Of a stretch of 18,689 nucleotides of DNA, positions 1 through 10,642 are shown one piece after another. This stretch comes from a virus. Numbering within the stretch: position 1 is the first letter of the stretch; each line of letters starts with the position of its first letter. The stretch lies in the UHGV virus genome UHGV-2027706; one strand, written 5' to 3'. The translations under genes and the position numbers were made by a program. Under the pieces are notes generated by a model that was not told the DNA's origin, did not search any database, and worked only from the letters and a program-made list of their open reading frames with translations.

Positions 1-1074
1 TCATTTGTCGATTTCAATTTTGTCCCATTCCCGTCCACGGCTGTCCCTATACCGCGCCGCTATTGAATCTGATTTATGCCCGAGAAGACGTTGAGCAAAC
101 TTATCGCCAATCTGGTTCCGGTATAGCCTCGCTGACAGGCTACGCAGTTCATGGAATGTTGGCGGGTTTCCATCAAATGAGAGTCCAGATGCATTTCTCG
201 CCTTTGTAAAATACTTTGATACTGTTTTCGGGGAAAGCTGATCGTGATGCTTTGATGCGATTATAGTTTCACTGCTGCTGGCCTCCCTGCATTTCTGTAG
301 TGTATCAGCCAATGAGATATTGAGCGCGTCAATCGTTAGCGTTAGTGGAATGGCGAGTTTAGCCCCTGTTTTACTCTGTTCAATGTGAAGATGGTTGTCG
401 TTTATGTCTGACCATTTCATTCTGCACAAATCGCCGACTCTCTGCCCTGTAACGACGGCCAAATCCATCGCCAGCCTTAGCCAGATAGGGAGAGGTTCGG
501 CTGCATGGTAAATCTCGACATACTCATTAGCTGTCAGCCTTGAGCGCCTTACTTCTGACTTTGCTGTACGGGTTGCTGTTACCGGATTCGTTGCCACATG
601 CCCCTCGGCTATTGCTTCACGAAAAACGTCAACAAGGGTTGACCTGATTAATTTTGCGGAAGCTGCTTTACCTTCTGCTACGTAGGTGTTTAGCATTGCT
701 GCCACTTCTTTCGTTGATATGTCAGTGAGCGGTTTGTCCGGCAATTTTCTTCGGATTGCCCTGATTTTGCTGGCGTAGTCGAGTAGAGTTTTCGGCCTGA
801 TCCCCCTTTCGGTGAGGATTCTTTCATATCGGTCAAGCCACACATGAAGAGTGATTGCGTCACCGCCTTTAATTCTGTCTATCAGTGATTTGCGTCCGCT
901 GTCTGAGAGTAACTCAATATTGGCCTGTATTGCTTCAGTGATTGCTATCCTCCTGTCTCGGCCTAATCCAAACTCTTTACCCGTCCTTGGGTCCCTGTAG
1001 CAGTAATATCCATTGTTTCTTATATAAAGGTTAGGGGGTAAATCCCGGCGCTCATGACTTCGCCTTCTTCCCAT
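1..1074 (-). CDS. int: Phage integrase, lambda Int-like tyrosine recombinase (complete, 357 aa; stop codon at window position 1-3)
   Basis: 357-aa ORF starting MGRRRSHERRDLPPNLYIRNNGYYCYRDPRTGKEFGLGRD, near-identical over long stretches to lambda Int as I remember it; C-terminal catalytic region with HELRSL...LGHKSD...Y. ATG at 1072-1074. Confidence 0.95.
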   Translation of the reverse strand: MGRRRSHERRDLPPNLYIRNNGYYCYRDPRTGKEFGLGRDRRIAITEAIQANIELLSDSGRKSLIDRIKGGDAITLHVWLDRYERILTERGIRPKTLLDYASKIRAIRRKLPDKPLTDISTKEVAAMLNTYVAEGKAASAKLIRSTLVDVFREAIAEGHVATNPVTATRTAKSEVRRSRLTANEYVEIYHAAEPLPIWLRLAMDLAVVTGQRVGDLCRMKWSDINDNHLHIEQSKTGAKLAIPLTLTIDALNISLADTLQKCREASSSETIIASKHHDQLSPKTVSKYFTKARNASGLSFDGNPPTFHELRSLSARLYRNQIGDKFAQRLLGHKSDSIAARYRDSRGREWDKIEIDK

Positions 1075-1987: not shown

Positions 1988-2055
1988 CTTTGAAGTTTTA
2001 GTTAGCGATCACCAGTTAGTGGCTGGTGATCGGGTGTCAACTAGAGCCTTCAAAG
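1988..2055 (-). promoter_or_regulatory. Long imperfect hairpin in the 5' leader of the antA-like gene, abutting its SD
   Basis: Three nested inverted-repeat segments: CTTTGAAG (1988-1995) with CTTCAAAG (2048-2055); TAGTT (1999-2003) with AACTA (2039-2043); CGATCACCAG (2006-2015) with CTGGTGATCG (2023-2032). Confidence 0.4.
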
Positions 2056-2333
2056 ACGCTCCGGGCATATTCCCCTTGCGGGTATTGTATTACGCCTCTC
2101 CACCCGACCTTTGTACGGATGTGACTATGCCAAATTGCAGGCATAAAAAAGCCGCAAAGCTATCGGGTGCGGATGACCGCTTTGAAGTTCTAGTGCGGTC
2201 AGTATGCGATAGCTCTAGCGGATTTGTCAAATCATGTAGTCTTTATCTTGCTGTAAGCCGCGCCATTCGGGCTTTTCCCCAGATTTGGGGGAAACTATCT
2301 GCGAAGTATTCACCTTTGACGGCAAGTTGCAGG

Positions 2334-4085: not shown

Positions 4086-4267
4086 TGGTTGCCTCCTTTG
4101 CGCCACATCGCATTCAGATATTTGTTTTGATTCACTGAAGGAAAAGAATTTCTCTTAAGCAATTCCTCTCTCGATGGCATTGGCTTTACGCGTTGGCGAA
4201 TAATCATTTCTGCCGGAAGAATACCGGGATTGTATGCAAGTCCTCTCATGGTAAATTCCTCAGTCAT
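4082..4267 (-). CDS. Small hypothetical protein (61 aa, [20 protein letters not shown]...)
   Basis: ATG at 4265-4267 embedded in the last codons of the upstream gene (ATGACTGA); the longer 106-aa track ORF has an implausible N-terminal extension. Confidence 0.45.
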
Positions 4268-4556
4268 TACTGATAGCGCCATAGCGTGAGCGGTAATTAC
4301 GCAGGCGCGGGTCGATATATTCAGGGAAGTGGGTATATGTGGCTTTGCGGAATGGTCGGATTGATGTCTGGTAAATTCGCTCTCGTTCTTCTTTCTCTGC
4401 AAGCCATATACAGTGGCGAAATTCTTTTTCCTCTTTCGTTTCCTGCGGTAGTGACATTATCCGATCGTAGTTTCTTCTGAATTTATCCAGCACCTCCGAT
4501 ACGGAATTGCCGGAACAGCGGCGCGGGTCATCCGCACCATACAGAGGCGCTGGCAT
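4260..4556 (-). CDS. Hypothetical phage protein (98 aa)
   Basis: ATG at 4554-4556 with AAGGA upstream; same strand and spacing as the rest of the operon. Confidence 0.55.
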
Positions 4557-4579: not shown

Positions 4580-4963
4580 TTAGAAGGGAATTGAATCGTC
4601 GTATTCAGGAAGATTTTGATGATTGTTACTTTGTTGCTGTTGGCTGTTTCCTGAAGTTGCAAATCCAATCTTTGCATTCAGTAATTCAAGAGTGATTGAT
4701 TGACCATTTTGCCCCTGATAAACATCAACCCTGATGTTTTCTCCGGTAATTTCCACAATTCCACCTTCAACCAGAACGCTACGATAGTAATCCGCTTGCG
4801 CTCCCGGCTTGGCAAATACAACGGCGCTGTAGTTTGTCCATTCTTTCTTTTTTGTCTGGCGATCGTAATACTGAACGCCAGCACGGATGTTGAATCCGAT
4901 ATTTTCCCCGGCCTGAAACTCTCTTGCGGGTTTGTTTAGTCTTACTGTAATCGAATGTGCCAT
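4580..4963 (-). CDS. ssb: Phage single-stranded DNA-binding protein-like (127 aa)
   Basis: C-terminal Gln-rich linker ending in acidic tail EYDDSIPF (the SSB DDIPF-type tail); OB-fold-like pattern W..Y.AVVFAK...LVEGG.VEITG. ATG at 4961-4963 overlaps the Erf stop (TAATG). Confidence 0.7.
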   Translation of the reverse strand: MAHSITVRLNKPAREFQAGENIGFNIRAGVQYYDRQTKKKEWTNYSAVVFAKPGAQADYYRSVLVEGGIVEITGENIRVDVYQGQNGQSITLELLNAKIGFATSGNSQQQQSNNHQNLPEYDDSIPF

Positions 4964-5568
4964 TAAGCAGTTGCCCCTTCTAATTCGTCTCGTCTGATGT
5001 TGTAAACGTCCTGCGCTTTGTGCTGCTCCGGCGTCCCTTCGAGCATCTTCCACGCTTTGGCGAACGCCTGTTTAAGCTCTTCTACGGTGTTTTTCTGCAT
5101 TGCTGCGTCAGTGAATGCTTTTAGAACCTGTTCAGGTGTAAGTGATGGTTTTGATTGCTTTGCTGCTGCGTTCTGCTGATGTTTATGCTCGTCTGTATCT
5201 GCATCTTTCGCATCATCAATGCCGAACAAACCATTGAGGCAATACTTGCGCGCATAAGAACTTGTAGCTCCAGTAACTTGTGCAGAATCCATTCCTTTCT
5301 TGCTTTCTTCCTCTCTTGCGAGAGCGGTTGCCGTATGGCGGTTTTCGCCATCGGTAATAGTTGCCGTGGCTTTCACATAATACCGATCACCAATCAACAC
5401 AACTTCATCGCTGATTGATAAAAACAGGCCATTCAGTAACGGCTTAACGCCTTCAAGAATGTCTTCGCAGCTTCTGTATTTATATTTACCGAATGAGTTG
5501 TACTGATTCTTTGGCGCGTTCAGATTCTCCTGAATAGCTGCCAGTCTTGCATAAAATTCTTTGCTCAT
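4963..5568 (-). CDS. erf: Erf-family single-strand annealing protein (201 aa from ATG 5568)
   Basis: N-terminal FYARLAAIQENL...YKYRSCEDILEGVKPLL resembles the ERF (P22 Erf) family motif from memory; sits in the bet position next to the SSB. The only in-frame ATG is at 5566-5568 (track start 5598 is a TTG). Confidence 0.7.
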   Translation of the reverse strand: MSKEFYARLAAIQENLNAPKNQYNSFGKYKYRSCEDILEGVKPLLNGLFLSISDEVVLIGDRYYVKATATITDGENRHTATALAREEESKKGMDSAQVTGATSSYARKYCLNGLFGIDDAKDADTDEHKHQQNAAAKQSKPSLTPEQVLKAFTDAAMQKNTVEELKQAFAKAWKMLEGTPEQHKAQDVYNIRRDELEGATA

Positions 5569-5657
5569 ATGTTTGTTCTCAGAATGGACATGGCCCAAGG
5601 AAATAACGCTGATTTAATACTTCAGTCTTTGCCGCATTTAAAAATACGCGAACACCT

Positions 5658-5828
5658 TCACGATCTCCCTTCTGGCGATACATTAACGCCTGCTGCGTGT
5701 ACATGCGTCTCTGTAACTTGCTCTCCTTCACTGTGGTTGCAAGTGACATGAATATCTCCTTCGTTACCGATTAATTCTTTCATCTGACGAATGAATTCTT
5801 CGTCTGACCAGCTATCTGTAAAACTCAT
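5658..5828 (-). CDS. Small protein (56 aa) between erf and kil, in the position of P22 arf
   Basis: ATG at 5826-5828 overlaps the kil-like stop (ATGA); acidic N-terminus MSFTDSWSDEEFIRQMKELIG. Identity by position only. Confidence 0.4.
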   Translation of the reverse strand: MSFTDSWSDEEFIRQMKELIGNEGDIHVTCNHSEGEQVTETHVHAAGVNVSPEGRS

Positions 5829-5977
5829 TTCCTGCGATACCACGGAAGGTTGATAGCTGATTTCATCGCTTTATTTGCTTCAAGCCACATTTTGGAATCA
5901 CCAATAAATCTGGCTATTACTGCTTTGTTTTGTGCTGCACGAAGCATCTGGTGATTGATGGCTATTTCATTGCGCAT
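5825..5977 (-). CDS. kil: Kil-like small protein (50 aa; not in the ORF track, below its length cutoff)
   Basis: Translated by hand: MRNEIAINHQMLRAAQNKAVIARFIGDSKMWLEANKAMKSAINLPWYRRK; the IARFIGDSKM core resembles lambda Kil as I recall it; position between erf and cIII fits. Confidence 0.45.
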   Translation of the reverse strand: MRNEIAINHQMLRAAQNKAVIARFIGDSKMWLEANKAMKSAINLPWYRRK

Positions 5978-6093
5978 AATAAGACCTCAACTCTTTTCCA
6001 TCCGTCACGTAATTTACGGGTGATTCGTTCAAGTAAAGATTCATTTAGTTGGAAGGCACCCATGCGAGCGCCTCCCGCGATTGCGTAAATCAT
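5962..6093 (-). CDS. cIII: cIII-like protein (43 aa; not in the ORF track)
   Basis: Translated by hand: MIYAIAGGARMGAFQLNESLLERITRKLRDGWKRVEVLLCAMK; the SLLERITRKLRDGWKR core matches lambda CIII from memory; SD AAGGA 7 nt upstream of ATG 6091-6093. Confidence 0.6.
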   Translation of the reverse strand: MIYAIAGGARMGAFQLNESLLERITRKLRDGWKRVEVLLCAMK

Positions 6094-6117
6094 GGGTGGT
6101 TCCTTATGTTGGTTTTA

Positions 6118-6660
6118 TTAGTAGGTTATTTTTGTTGCGAATACTTCGCCTTTTACGATGGCTGTTATGATATTTTTAGCAACATCTTCTGATGCGCCAA
6201 CCTTGATAAGGTCAGCAAGTATTTTGTTATTTACTTCTTTCCGGTGAGCTTTATCCTTTGCTCTACGCTCTTCTTCTTCCTTGATTCTTTTTTCTTCTGC
6301 TATTCTGGCTTGCTCTTTTGCTTCAGCCTCGCGCCGGATTCGTTCAGTCTCCTCCTGTGCTTTTCGGCGTTCTGCTTCAATTGCCGCCTGCTTTTCTCTT
6401 TCAGCTCGTTCTGCTGCCTCTTTTGCTTCGCGCTGTGCTCGTTGCTCGGCTTCAATGCGTTCACGCTCTGCACGTTCCGCTGCGGCCTTAGCTTCTGCTT
6501 CTCGCCTTGCTGCTGCTTCAATTTCGGCTTTTGCCTTTGCTTCGGCTTCTGCTCTGGCTTTCTCTTCAGCTTCTCTTTTTAAGCGTTCTTCATGCTCTCG
6601 CTTTTCCTGCTCCGCTTTGAGTCTTGCCTCTTCTCTTTGGCGGTCAAATTCGCGATCCAT
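6118..6660 (-). CDS. E/A/R/K-rich charged-helix protein segment (about 180 aa); probably the C-terminal part of one gene with 6669..7085
   Basis: About 140 residues of low-complexity REAEEKARAEAEAKAKAEIEAAARREAEAKAAAERAERER repeats ending in a small globular tail (ILADLIKVGASEDVAKNIITAIVKGEVFATKITY); the same reading frame stays open and protein-like up to 6795. Confidence 0.55.
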   Translation of the reverse strand: MDREFDRQREEARLKAEQEKREHEERLKREAEEKARAEAEAKAKAEIEAAARREAEAKAAAERAERERIEAEQRAQREAKEAAERAEREKQAAIEAERRKAQEETERIRREAEAKEQARIAEEKRIKEEEERRAKDKAHRKEVNNKILADLIKVGASEDVAKNIITAIVKGEVFATKITY

Positions 6661-6668
6661 CAAAATCG

Positions 6669-7085
6669 CTATTTCATGGTCAGACTCAATTTGCTTTGCG
6701 AGAGCTTCAGCTGCTGCCTTAGCTTCTTCTTCGGCTTTAATCCGCGCCTGTTCCTCCTCATAATCAGTAAGAGGCTGGCGAGCCTTGCTTTCAGTTCATC
6801 AAGGCGATCGCGCACTGTCTTGCGGTTGGCATCAATTAGCTTTGGAATTTCCTTCAGTTCAGCAACAAGGTCTTTGCCAAGACCATCGAGATATGTTTTC
6901 GTCTGCGCAACTTTATACGCCAGAGAAGCGATCTCCTTTCTGCCCTTTGCCGTTGTGATATCAGGCACAAAGGACATAACTTCACGTTCAACCTTTTGGA
7001 GAATTTCTTCAATCTGGTCGGCAGACTGAAATACAGTCATTGCATTTGCTTTTTCAATAACAACTAAATCTGTTACTTCACTCAT
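6669..7085 (-). CDS. Hypothetical protein, N-terminal segment (138-aa ORF); last 35-40 residues look out of frame
   Basis: SD GGAGG 6 nt upstream of ATG 7083-7085; N-terminal 100 aa protein-like, tail RLASLLLIMRRNRRGLKPKKKLRQQLKLSQSKLSLTMK is off-frame-like while the other frame over the same DNA reads TDYEEEQARIKAEEEAKAAAEALAKQIE. Confidence 0.5.
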   Translation of the reverse strand: MSEVTDLVVIEKANAMTVFQSADQIEEILQKVEREVMSFVPDITTAKGRKEIASLAYKVAQTKTYLDGLGKDLVAELKEIPKLIDANRKTVRDRLDELKARLASLLLIMRRNRRGLKPKKKLRQQLKLSQSKLSLTMK

Positions 7086-7099
7086 ATATATCCTCCGTC

Positions 7100-7128
7100 A
7101 AAAAAATTGCCCTCACACTGGAGGGCAA
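7100..7128 (-). terminator. Intrinsic terminator (tL-type) inside the leftward operon
   Basis: TTGCCCTC-acactg-GAGGGCAA perfect 8-bp stem (7107-7128) with a 7-A run at 7100-7106 on the plus strand, i.e. hairpin then U7 on the minus-strand transcript. Confidence 0.65.
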
Positions 7129-7219
7129 AGAAGATTTCCAATAATCAGAACAAGTCGGCTCCTGTTTAGTTACGAGCGACATTGCTCACATAGCAGACTC
7201 GCAAATCTGCTATAGGTGC

Positions 7220-8750: not shown

Positions 8751-8936
8751 TTACAGAGCAAAGAGATCATGCATTAGGTTGCTGTTCATCTGGTGGTTGA
8801 ATTGATACGGCTCCAATTCCTTCTTGATCTCGTTCAGGTGTTGTTCCGCTTTTTTTGCCAGATCGTGACCTTCTTGGATCTGGCTTTCCAACATCTTGTT
8901 GAGAATTTCCATCTCCGGTTGCAGATTCTTCGGCAT
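8751..8936 (-). CDS. Small helical protein (61 aa), out of frame inside the 3' end of the protease-like ORF
   Basis: ATG at 8934-8936 with SD AGAGGA about 9 nt upstream; product MPKNLQPEMEILNKMLESQIQEGHDLAKKAEQHLNEIKKELEPYQFNHQMNSNLMHDLFAL is protein-like and amphipathic. Confidence 0.4.
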   Translation of the reverse strand: MPKNLQPEMEILNKMLESQIQEGHDLAKKAEQHLNEIKKELEPYQFNHQMNSNLMHDLFAL

Positions 8937-9768
8937 TAGCTTTTTCCTCTTTTTGTAGATACGTTGTACAATCAATAACCCTCGGCTTTCCAAATGTTGG
9001 AATGTCACCATTATGAATTTTGTCACAGAAAAGATTATAGAGTATTTCTGTTATACCTTTAGGATGCTCAACACACTTGAAAAGTTCCTTGGCTTCTTTT
9101 CTGTCGATAACAAATCCATGTGAAGGATATGAGGCTATTAGTTTGCCTAACGCCCCTTCTTTTAGGCTGCTTGGTTTGTCTGCTAATCGTTGGCCATAAG
9201 TGATAGCTATACTCATTGCGCGCTGATGTTCACCAAGCTTTATTGGATCTATCTGTGCGGCCATAGGTGCTATCAACGCTTCTGTAAGTCTGGTCGCGAT
9301 ATCAGCAGACATTTTGGTACTTATCTGATTTTCGTATCTTATCTTAACAAGGTGTGAGTTAAACGCTGAAATAGAGCGTTCCTTTAGAGCATCAAGAGCT
9401 GTCATGATAGCTAAACCAGAACTCATCTCACCTATTTCATCGTTTTTTTTCAGTTGGATATCTAATGGCCCAAGCTCCCCCATGTCACCAATAACAAGTT
9501 TATTGGCTGCTATAGCTATTAGTGTACCAGCACTTTTGCATGGTCCAACAACTAAAAGTGTTACCGTTTCATAATGGTGCTGTAGAGCTCTACCTATACG
9601 ATAACCTGCATTTGGATCACCGCCATAAGTAGCAACACAGAAGATAACATTCTCTTTTAATCCATGTTGTGACTTACGTTTCTTGATTTCATTGGTGAGA
9701 TCAAGATAACCATCACGATGAATATCGCCTGTATACACATAAACATCATGATTTTCAATAGAATTCAT
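8767..9768 (-). CDS. ClpP/SppA-fold (SDH / S49-like) putative serine peptidase (333 aa) at the rexAB-equivalent locus
   Basis: ATG at 9766-9768 with SD GGAG 8 nt upstream; N-terminal half has the ClpP-fold signature VTLLVVGPCKSAGTLIAIAANKLVIGDMGELGPLDIQL (compare ClpP GQAASMGAFLLAAG); the last 58 residues are low-complexity and overlap the 61-aa ORF. Confidence 0.7.
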   Translation of the reverse strand: MNSIENHDVYVYTGDIHRDGYLDLTNEIKKRKSQHGLKENVIFCVATYGGDPNAGYRIGRALQHHYETVTLLVVGPCKSAGTLIAIAANKLVIGDMGELGPLDIQLKKNDEIGEMSSGLAIMTALDALKERSISAFNSHLVKIRYENQISTKMSADIATRLTEALIAPMAAQIDPIKLGEHQRAMSIAITYGQRLADKPSSLKEGALGKLIASYPSHGFVIDRKEAKELFKCVEHPKGITEILYNLFCDKIHNGDIPTFGKPRVIDCTTYLQKEEKANAEESATGDGNSQQDVGKPDPRRSRSGKKSGTTPERDQEGIGAVSIQPPDEQQPNA

Positions 9769-9934: not shown

Positions 9935-10642
9935 TCACGAACTTTTCAGCCACTCCCTTGCCTCGATGTCATCCAGATGGCGAGATTGCTTCAGAATACC
10001 AGCCACATACTCCACCTTTGCTACTTGATGATAAGGCAACGTTATTGGCCTGTGGTCCTGGTTGATGCTTGTAAATTGGTATTCTCCGTCTCTGTCATAG
10101 CCAAGAACTTTGATCATGTTGTGTCCTTCAACAGTTCTGACAAACACCTCATCACCCGGGAATACTTTGGTGTTAGGCTCAATGAGTACATATTCTCCTG
10201 ATTTTATTCTGGGCCACATGCTGTCTCCTTTCACACGAAGACCAAAGGCATCTGGATCATCGCTATAAATCTTGAGCCACCCATCGCGCTCTTCGGTCAT
10301 CTCGATGGCACCATCAACACCAAGAATTGCCTCACCAACCACGCGCACTAACCCTTTTTTTAATTTGCCAACAAATGAAAGAGTATCTTCATCATTCGCT
10401 CCATTTAACGAAGTGCCGTGCTGAAGCCAAACAACATCAACGTTTAGAAATTTCGCAAGCGCATTCATTTTTTCCTGACGCGGTAAAGACTCAGCATTAA
10501 ACCATTTGCTAACGCCTTTGGACGAAAGAGAAAGGGCACGGGCTATGGCCATCCCCCTACCATGTTCATCAAGACCAGCTTCTTTACAGGCTTGCGCTAG
10601 CCGCTGGGCGAATTCTTTGCGCACTTTTTCATTCTGAACCAT
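9935..10642 (-). CDS. cI: CI-type prophage repressor (235 aa; HTH plus LexA-like S24 autopeptidase domain)
   Basis: N-terminal HTH (GMAIARALSLSSKGVSKW) and C-terminal S24 domain with GDSMWP serine motif; divergent from cro across a short operator interval; ATG at 10640-10642. Confidence 0.9.
   Translation of the reverse strand: MVQNEKVRKEFAQRLAQACKEAGLDEHGRGMAIARALSLSSKGVSKWFNAESLPRQEKMNALAKFLNVDVVWLQHGTSLNGANDEDTLSFVGKLKKGLVRVVGEAILGVDGAIEMTEERDGWLKIYSDDPDAFGLRVKGDSMWPRIKSGEYVLIEPNTKVFPGDEVFVRTVEGHNMIKVLGYDRDGEYQFTSINQDHRPITLPYHQVAKVEYVAGILKQSRHLDDIEAREWLKSS

Follow-up and report, generated by a model that had tools for sequence, protein, structure and literature searches.

The window analysed here is the whole of an 18,689-nt viral sequence, UHGV virus genome UHGV-2027706. 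On its minus strand, the ORF listing and the sequence give two consecutive reading frames of 138 and 181 aa (ORF1 and ORF2), set in a run of phage genes that is transcribed from PL in the direction of descending window coordinates. The features of this part of the window are:

7107–7128, minus strand: intrinsic terminator upstream of the split gene, found by scan; stem-loop TTGCCCTCCAGTGTGAGGGCAA followed by seven T residues
6118–7085, minus strand: the split gene, 968 nt
6669–7085, minus strand: ORF1, 138 aa, from ATG 7085; native codons 1–99, then 39 out-of-frame residues (RLASLLLIMRRNRRGLKPKKKLRQQLKLSQSKLSLTMK) and TAG
6787–6788, minus strand: site of a 1-nt deletion, GAAAG-CC-AAGG in intact copies and GAAAG-C-AAGG in the window; gene position 299/300, codon 100
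6669–6795, minus strand: zone of 127 nt free of stop codons both in the frame of ORF1 and in the native downstream frame
6118–6663, minus strand: ORF2, 181 aa from TTG 6663 or 180 aa from ATG 6660; native residues 142–322
5962–6093, minus strand: cIII, the next gene downstream, intact (Pfam Lambda_CIII, E 4e-15)
5825–5977, minus strand: kil, intact (Pfam Lambda_Kil, E 1.7e-20)
4963–5598, minus strand: Erf-type single-strand annealing protein (Pfam ERF, E 4.2e-44), part of the recombination module that follows the split gene
4260–4556, minus strand: Abc2 anti-RecBCD protein (Pfam Anti-RecBCD_p2, E 1.5e-61)

Read in the PL direction, the genes are a cI-like repressor, a 333-aa protein, N, Ral, a Y8K6-like gene and a small ORF, followed by the terminator and then by the split gene, cIII, kil, a small ORF, Erf, a gp40-like gene, Abc2 and, further along, int. 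The terminator matches tL2A of phage Sf6, which is annotated there as ‘homology to phage lambda’ and stands directly before gene 33. The split gene belongs to the N-antiterminated early-left (PL) operon of an E. coli lambdoid prophage, and its place in that operon, beside recombination genes, is the one typical of its family. An ORF at 4580–5053 was considered as a single-stranded DNA-binding protein (SSB) and rejected, having no Pfam match. The window begins at the integrase stop codon, and an identical integrase protein adjoins torS in E. coli assemblies. No more than 55% of the window is found in any one complete E. coli genome; such low whole-window coverage is expected of a mosaic lambdoid prophage.

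A first-pass annotation made from the sequence had proposed that a single frameshift divides one gene into these two ORFs. This is borne out by end-to-end alignment with three intact homologues, from E. coli USMARC-50748, Sf6 (gene 33) and mEp043 (mEp043_044), in each of which the same DNA forms the single long ORF that comparison with related prophages had been expected to reveal, one gene of 969 nt and 322 aa. The alignment with the window copy contains 1 gap in 969 columns: where the intact copies read GAAAGCCAAGG, the window reads GAAAGCAAGG, one C of a CC pair being absent. The site lies inside the bracket of 6770–6800 that had been predicted for the event. When one C is put back, a 322-aa protein results (about 320 aa had been forecast), 99% identical to RefSeq cluster P0002 with its 471 member sequences. 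A synonymous G to T change, at window position 6781, lies 6 nt downstream of the deletion and is found also in copies that keep the CC pair.

Both ORFs carry the marks of this event. The frame of ORF2 is indeed open upstream to 6795, where it reads TESKARQPLTDYEEEQARIK, so that it overlaps ORF1 by 127 nt, and the tail of ORF1 that had been suspected of being off frame has 13 K+R and not one D or E in 38 residues. The native part of ORF1 is the conserved N-terminal domain, its matches to PHROG 1376/17211 being confined to residues 1–102/105. ORF2, for which gene callers place the start at the ATG, matches PHROG 21365/1376. The two ORFs correspond to the two halves of PHROG 1376, and native residues 100–141 are encoded by neither; the window copy has 138-aa and 181-aa ORFs in place of the single ORF of roughly 300–360 aa seen in the family. 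The closest relative is Sf6 gp33 (AAQ12223), which is the same protein as mEp043_044 and WP_000005785 and belongs to PHROG 1376, matching that profile over its whole length (E 2e-110). The intact gene and the window copy share 98–99% nucleotide identity over the whole gene (98.9% for Sf6), the tL2–cIII position in the PL operon, and the same start and stop; they differ by the one C missing from codon 100 of the window copy and by the resulting split in two. Judged from the sequence, the two ORFs are one prophage gene of the Sf6 gene 33 family, broken by the loss of a single base. We put at roughly 80% the probability that the locus holds an allele of this Sf6 gene 33/PHROG 1376 family gene that the frameshift has inactivated or, at best, split.

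Translation from ATG 7085 would leave the native frame inside the long helix of the protein, add 39 aberrant basic residues and stop at 6669. ORF2 could then arise only through termination and reinitiation at the TTG or ATG found 5–8 nt past the ORF1 stop. The window sequence offers no Shine-Dalgarno sequence for ORF2, and as reinitiation would be its sole route, full-length function is probably lost, leaving at most a trickle of a reinitiated C-terminal fragment or of a −1 slippage product. The C-terminal 180 aa could come from coupled reinitiation, and partial activity might survive in the 99-residue N-terminal domain. The downstream genes cIII, kil, erf and abc2 should remain expressed, because RNA polymerase modified by N is resistant to Rho-dependent polarity.

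A functional protein might nevertheless still be made from the split allele, either at full length by −1 slippage in the overlap or in two pieces by termination and reinitiation at ORF2. The shift needed is indeed −1, and the overlap holds one A_AAG (6737) with a Shine-Dalgarno-like AGGAGG 14 nt upstream, an arrangement that we take to resemble the stimulator geometry of dnaX. The ORF2 start codons follow the ORF1 stop closely, and the viable phage CUS-3 has its copy of the gene split only 37 nt away. However, the 127-nt overlap (6669–6795) contains no slippery heptamer of the form X_XXY_YYZ, and no Rfam element, frameshift elements included, was found in the region. The AGGAGG and AAAG merely encode the native Glu-Glu and Ile-Lys of intact copies, one of which has GAAGAA in place of AGGAGG; these are ordinary codons that did not arise as signals. 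Nor is the two-frame arrangement conserved among homologues, as would be expected at a programmed −1 site: in hundreds of intact copies the functional form is a single ORF, and the other disruptions are scattered (codons 20, 30, 112, 217, 265 and 299), a pattern that resembles decay and has no conserved split point. ORF2 also lacks a ribosome-binding site of its own. Functional recoding or split expression is therefore very unlikely in our estimation. A conserved arrangement of two genes with the same boundaries, which would have spoken against the frameshift, was rejected, since a single 969-nt ORF is present in 58 of the 77 complete copies examined outside the lineage of the window, and the disruptions are scattered.

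The low-complexity, GAA/GCA-rich DNA of the gene had raised the suspicion that its repeats are prone to slippage and that the frameshift might be a reversible on/off switch. The repeats lie elsewhere. The deletion is some 55 nt upstream of the nearest repeat copy, at a CC pair reduced to C that is not a slippage tract, and the tandem arrays reported by Tandem Repeats Finder within the helix-coding part are degenerate, with 63–87% matches. Direct repeats are 66–89% identical, the pair designated D1 being the following:

6475–6501, no strand assigned: direct repeat D1, copy 1, pairing with 6706–6732
6706–6732, no strand assigned: direct repeat D1, copy 2, partner of 6475–6501; 89% identical, 231 nt apart

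What these repeats yield is in-frame variation. Homologues 245 aa long have an exact deletion between the D1 copies, which removes 231 nt or 77 aa, and the set of homologues with 245, 275, 290, 296, 300, 306, 309, 322 and 333 aa confirms the length polymorphism of the helix that the first-pass annotation had anticipated. Phase variation can point to two other alleles in which a single A is lost, delA795 (in an A6 run) and delA897. Against it, the window deletion falls outside the repeats, whereas a contingency locus would have its indel in a homopolymer or a perfect short tandem repeat; the arrays are imperfect; the repeats change length and do not switch the frame; and both states were seen together in no sample. 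With the deletion lying outside both repeats and any slippage-prone tract, a switch of this kind is without support, and we give it next to no credence.

An inactivated allele in a single assembled genome could also be a sequencing or assembly error, the phage truly carrying an intact 969-nt gene. Single-base indels are the most frequent type of assembly error, the deletion occurs in no RefSeq isolate genome, and the cluster formed by the 138-aa product draws on no NCBI source. A 76-nt query centred on the site had no gap-free match at any of 544 places in complete E. coli genomes, every best match listed spanning 77 nt. The 22-mer specific for the deletion is likewise absent from IMG/VR and from GTDB representative genomes, and the corresponding intact 23-mer is present in 83 IMG/VR contigs. 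The deletion-specific 22-mer is present, however, in the metagenome contig OBUY01000405.1, and 7 contigs from ENA, Logan and JGI, up to about 57 kb long, encode the exact 138-aa product; their independence is only partly established, two of them apparently coming from one large ENA project. Identity to the window is 100% over 3364 nt in OBUY01000405.1, over 6417 nt in ERZ27239344 and over 2151 nt in ERR11473943; as all 7 contigs are 100% identical, they point to one phage lineage. No fewer than three sources or pipelines lie behind them (a MEGAHIT-style ENA assembly, a Logan assembly and the older ENA WGS set OBUY01, plus JGI), and the same error in several assemblies is improbable. The site itself is a CC pair, not a homopolymer, where the indel errors of sequencing platforms concentrate. 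Moreover, two complete genomes have the neighbouring T variant with an intact CC pair, so the window allele is one step from an existing sequence, which points to a recent origin. Recurrence of the allele across ENA, Logan and JGI thus argues for a real mutation and not a one-off error; we regard an artefact as unlikely and the allele as probably genuine, rare and confined to one phage lineage. Among the three causes that had been offered for the frameshift, a real pseudogene is the one supported, and neither sequencing error nor phase variation is favoured.

The gene had seemed unusual for a lambdoid early-left operon; it proves to be common there. By megablast, the region 6000–7200 is matched in 2276 of 5426 complete E. 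coli genomes (495 at a coverage of at least 80%) and in 327 phage records, and the gene occupies a fixed slot between the terminator tL2 and cIII. Among 77 complete copies outside the lineage of the window, 58 are intact at 969 nt, 1 is an in-frame form of 903 nt and 18 are disrupted. The disruptions identified are:

CAG to TAG at codon 20 (Q20*), at 10 loci, of which some have further, secondary deletions
+T after position 336, in CUS-3 and three contigs
CAA to TAA at codon 30 (Q30*), in phiv205-1
delA795, a single A lost from an A6 run
delA897, a single A lost
delCA650-651, in strain bR_120_Kylling, labelled ‘frameshifted’ by PGAP
an IS3 element in place of the first ~218 nt, in strain UTME-12

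There are thus at least seven other independent disruptions: the +T of CUS-3, Q20*, Q30*, three small deletions and the IS3 insertion. The deletion in the window is an ordinary inactivating mutation, one of many in a dispensable E. coli prophage gene; that the gene is non-essential is plain, because CUS-3 is a viable phage. Of the 66 complete copies in IMG/VR, 15 are disrupted, whereas cIII is disrupted in 0 of 66 and kil in 0 of 63. Large as it looks, this excess does not establish that the gene is broken more often than its neighbours, since it is not significant when counted as about 5 independent events in an approximately 3.4-fold larger target.

CUS-3 provides a close parallel. Its ECRS218_0048/0049 are the same gene annotated as two ORFs, the result of a 1-nt frameshift in the same part, but the event is an independent one: the T added after position 336 lies 37 nt downstream of the window deletion, and the ORFs are of 116 aa and 214 aa. 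In length and extent these agree with PHROGs 17211 and 21365, so those two families look like artefacts of a split of the CUS-3 type. The two ORFs of the window should be annotated as one frameshifted pseudogene and not as two hypothetical proteins. In itself the finding carries little weight, as one more broken allele of a dispensable prophage gene; of more interest is its by-product, a very widespread, unnamed protein family that is tightly linked to phage recombination modules.

The three-part architecture foreseen for the fused protein, with an N-terminal domain, a long ER/K helix and a small C-terminal domain, agrees with its composition and with AlphaFold2 (AF2) models. Beyond the N-terminal domain, it comprises:

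6262–6636, minus strand: core of the ER/K-type charged helix, native residues 151–275, from composition, i/i+4 pairs and AF2
6121–6261, minus strand: small conserved C-terminal domain, native residues 276–322, with the motif HRK...A..I..AI..G.....I.Y, from alignments

The N-terminal motif is T.KGR..IAS.A.KV..SKTYLD..GK.LV...K..PK.ID..RK..RD.LD...R.PLT.WE. Residues 151–275 are 61.6% charged (E 32%, A 26%, R 19%, K 10%) and 6.4% hydrophobic; in these 125 residues there are 50 opposite-charge i/i+4 pairs and no heptad pattern, the hydrophobic residues being spread over six of seven registers. More than half of the segment is thus charged, with dense i/i+4 opposite charges and no heptad hydrophobic core, as in ER/K helices. 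AF2 predicts one helix over residues 69–295, with pLDDT above 90 over approximately residues 110–220, in keeping with the long isolated helix expected from structure prediction. The best profile match in the PDB is to the single-helix region of myosin VI (E 3.5e-4). Like the myosin VI medial tail, itself an ER/K helix, the gp33-family protein combines such a composition with dense i/i+4 E–K/R pairs and no hydrophobic heptads, and it is modelled as one uninterrupted helix. The comparison was made by profile, composition and predicted structure and would imply no homology; the PDB profile matches (myosin VI, zuotin) were set aside as compositional only. It also has a limit, in that distant gp33-family members are predicted as long helical hairpins with a small middle domain. 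The models thus support an ER/K single alpha helix as a prediction, and the intact protein is predicted to be cytoplasmic, with a strongly conserved, helical domain at the N terminus, an ER/K spacer whose length varies and a C-terminal domain of about 45 aa.

RefSeq names WP_000005785 a ‘coiled-coil domain-containing protein’ or a ‘cell envelope biogenesis protein TolA’. The likeness to E. coli TolA, from which the latter name stems, is an Ala/Glu/Lys-rich helical middle, but the gp33 family is phage-encoded and cytoplasmic, with neither the membrane anchor nor the C-terminal domain of TolA. Identity with TolA was rejected: the tolA_full model (TIGR02794) gives 9.2 bits (E 0.62) against a cut-off of 59.45, and there is no N-terminal transmembrane anchor in the protein, the highest 19-residue Kyte-Doolittle mean being 1.03, at residues 293–311. 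The earlier description of the protein as TolA-like therefore stands for composition and fails for the model match and the membrane segment, and the RefSeq name is a misleading, compositional misnomer.

Other profile collections have no better name for the protein. Pfam has no family for the intact protein, nor for eight distant members; Pfam, NCBIfam and PADLOC scans gave nothing meaningful for the intact protein or the distant members, and PHROG 1376 is annotated as ‘unknown function’. The model of a distant member (pLDDT 86.7), made up of long helical hairpins, has no Foldseek match in the PDB at E ≤ 0.001 and in BFVD matches only uncharacterised proteins, which by sequence identity are probably members of the same family. 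Defined by its N-terminal 100 residues, the family comprises 4281 clusters at 50% identity with E ≤ 1e-3, or 2195 with E ≤ 1e-10, and its typical members are 300–360 aa long.

In four genomes, a distant member of the family is encoded directly upstream of a recombination module. The family gene is followed by genes for a 288-aa protein, YqaJ and SSB in Pseudomonas; by ERF, YqaJ, SSB and RdgC in Pseudorhodoferax; by GamL, RecT, an unknown protein and YqaJ in the E. coli locus of the 358-aa type; and by three small genes, DUF3799 and RecT in Pantoea. We sampled this neighbourhood at 80 IMG/VR loci, forming 23 clusters at 70% identity, with Pfam searches of the four same-strand ORFs on each side. 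Downstream, YqaJ was found in 11 of the clusters, ERF in 9, SSB in 5, RecT in 4 and RdgC in 1; upstream, RecT was found in 5, YqaJ in 4 and SSB in 1. ERF or RecT lay within four same-strand ORFs in 17 of the 23 clusters, and at least one of ERF, RecT, YqaJ and SSB in 22. The annealing protein was the immediately following ORF in 11 of the 23, often 8–11 nt away.

This near-invariant position beside ERF/RecT–YqaJ–SSB genes in phages of Proteobacteria suggests, if with modest confidence, an accessory role for the intact protein in the phage recombination module, where it may act as a spacer or tether that keeps two partners apart. The proposed role rests on gene neighbourhood, and synteny of the early-left operon could give the same pattern. 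More tentatively still, and with the odds on balance against it, the unnamed family, which has neither a Pfam entry nor a solved structure, could be an unrecognised fifth component of the single-strand-annealing modules of Proteobacteria phages, perhaps a long-helix spacer or tether that acts together with Erf/RecT, the YqaJ exonuclease and SSB. If this were true, the recurrent breakage of the gene in E. coli prophages would indicate that selection on this function is relaxed or negative in lysogens. The family is an obvious candidate for experimental work. The majority of early-left genes were described in the phage L paper as having no known function, and our searches of the literature on Sf6 gene 33, on mEp phages with TolA and on coiled-coil proteins upstream of erf/recT turned up no study of function. 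As far as a targeted term search of it shows, a 2025 survey of lambdoid Rec modules distinguishes SSB, nuclease, annealing protein and anti-RecBCD classes and names no such protein (PMC12315714).

A similar arrangement has been described in phages of Firmicutes, in which Mu-Gam-like, DUF2483, DUF1351 or Gp157 genes come before the erf–ssb module, ‘implying analogous function’ (PMC8093625). The likeness of the gp33 family to Sipho_Gp157 (PF05565), DUF1351 (PF07083), DUF2483 and Mu-Gam-like proteins, which in Firmicutes phages stand before erf/sak4–ssb, is one of position, a helical protein being encoded directly upstream. The gp33 family differs from them in matching none of those Pfam models; for the Sipho_Gp157 and DUF1351 models there was no match with Sf6 gp33 or the window ORFs at E ≤ 1, nor with the eight distant members at E ≤ 0.1. 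Functional equivalence with any of those genes would be conjecture. At one locus, a Gp157 gene lies alongside a gene of the gp33 family.

The charged helix of the Sf6 gene 33 family (PHROG 1376) differs in length among homologues, and the window itself holds a pair of direct repeats in the corresponding DNA:

6475-6501, first 27-nt copy of the direct repeat
6706-6732, second 27-nt copy, 89% identical to the first and 231 nt from it

This spacing fits the 77-aa in-frame deletion found in the shortened 245-aa variants (protein clusters P0100-P0115), which occur in both E. coli and Salmonella. The variation in helix length thus comes from repeat recombination.

Damage to the gene recurs in other copies. 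The two complete genomes closest to the window at the site of its 1-nt deletion, E. coli UTME-12 (locus L183, NZ_CP157095) and bR_120_Kylling (locus L184, NZ_CP182374), both carry copies that were broken independently: IS3 has inserted into the first, and the second has lost 2 nt. A second, distantly related member of the family (<50% identity), a 358-aa paralogue with GamL-RecT-YqaJ directly downstream, is also present in E. coli prophages (loci L096/L097); thus, two sequence types of the family circulate within one host species.

Broken copies also appear to have left their mark on the databases. PHROG 17211 corresponds to the N-terminal 116 aa of PHROG 1376 and PHROG 21365 to its C-terminal 214 aa, and these are the families matched by the two annotated ORFs of phage CUS-3, in which the gene carries a +T frameshift. 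Both families look like annotation artefacts derived from a broken gene. RefSeq naming of the intact product (WP_000005785-like proteins) is inconsistent: PGAP uses two names for one protein, ‘cell envelope biogenesis protein TolA’ and ‘coiled-coil domain-containing protein’, and in one phage record (HF4s) it is entered as ‘antitoxin protein’. These proteins fail both the tolA_full model and a membrane-anchor test, and the label TolA was rejected on those grounds.

Elsewhere in the window, four features of the minus strand merit description:

1..1074 (-), integrase of 357 aa, its stop codon at the exact first position of the window
2020..2109 (-), full-length Rfam match to sRNA-Xcc1 (RF02221)
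4580..5053 (-), HK97 gp40-like ORF after erf, 127 aa according to gene callers
8767..9768 (-), ORF of 333 aa between N and the cI-like repressor (9935..10642)

An identical integrase protein is adjoined by torS in several E. coli assemblies, where the prophage early-left operons are quite different (Gam/RecT/YqaJ type), a combination that illustrates the mosaicism of these prophages. The sRNA-Xcc1 match falls towards int within the early-left region and reaches 64.5 bits, above the gathering score of 53. The 333-aa ORF fills the slot occupied by rexAB in lambda and is possibly a gene for exclusion or defence carried by the prophage; its similarity to ClpP/SDH-type serine proteases (PF01972) is weak and under the cut-off (E 4.4e-7). 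The ORF after erf, which had no match in a Pfam search, takes the slot that holds SSB in Sf6, and an upstream GTG start, if used, would make it overlap the 3' end of erf.
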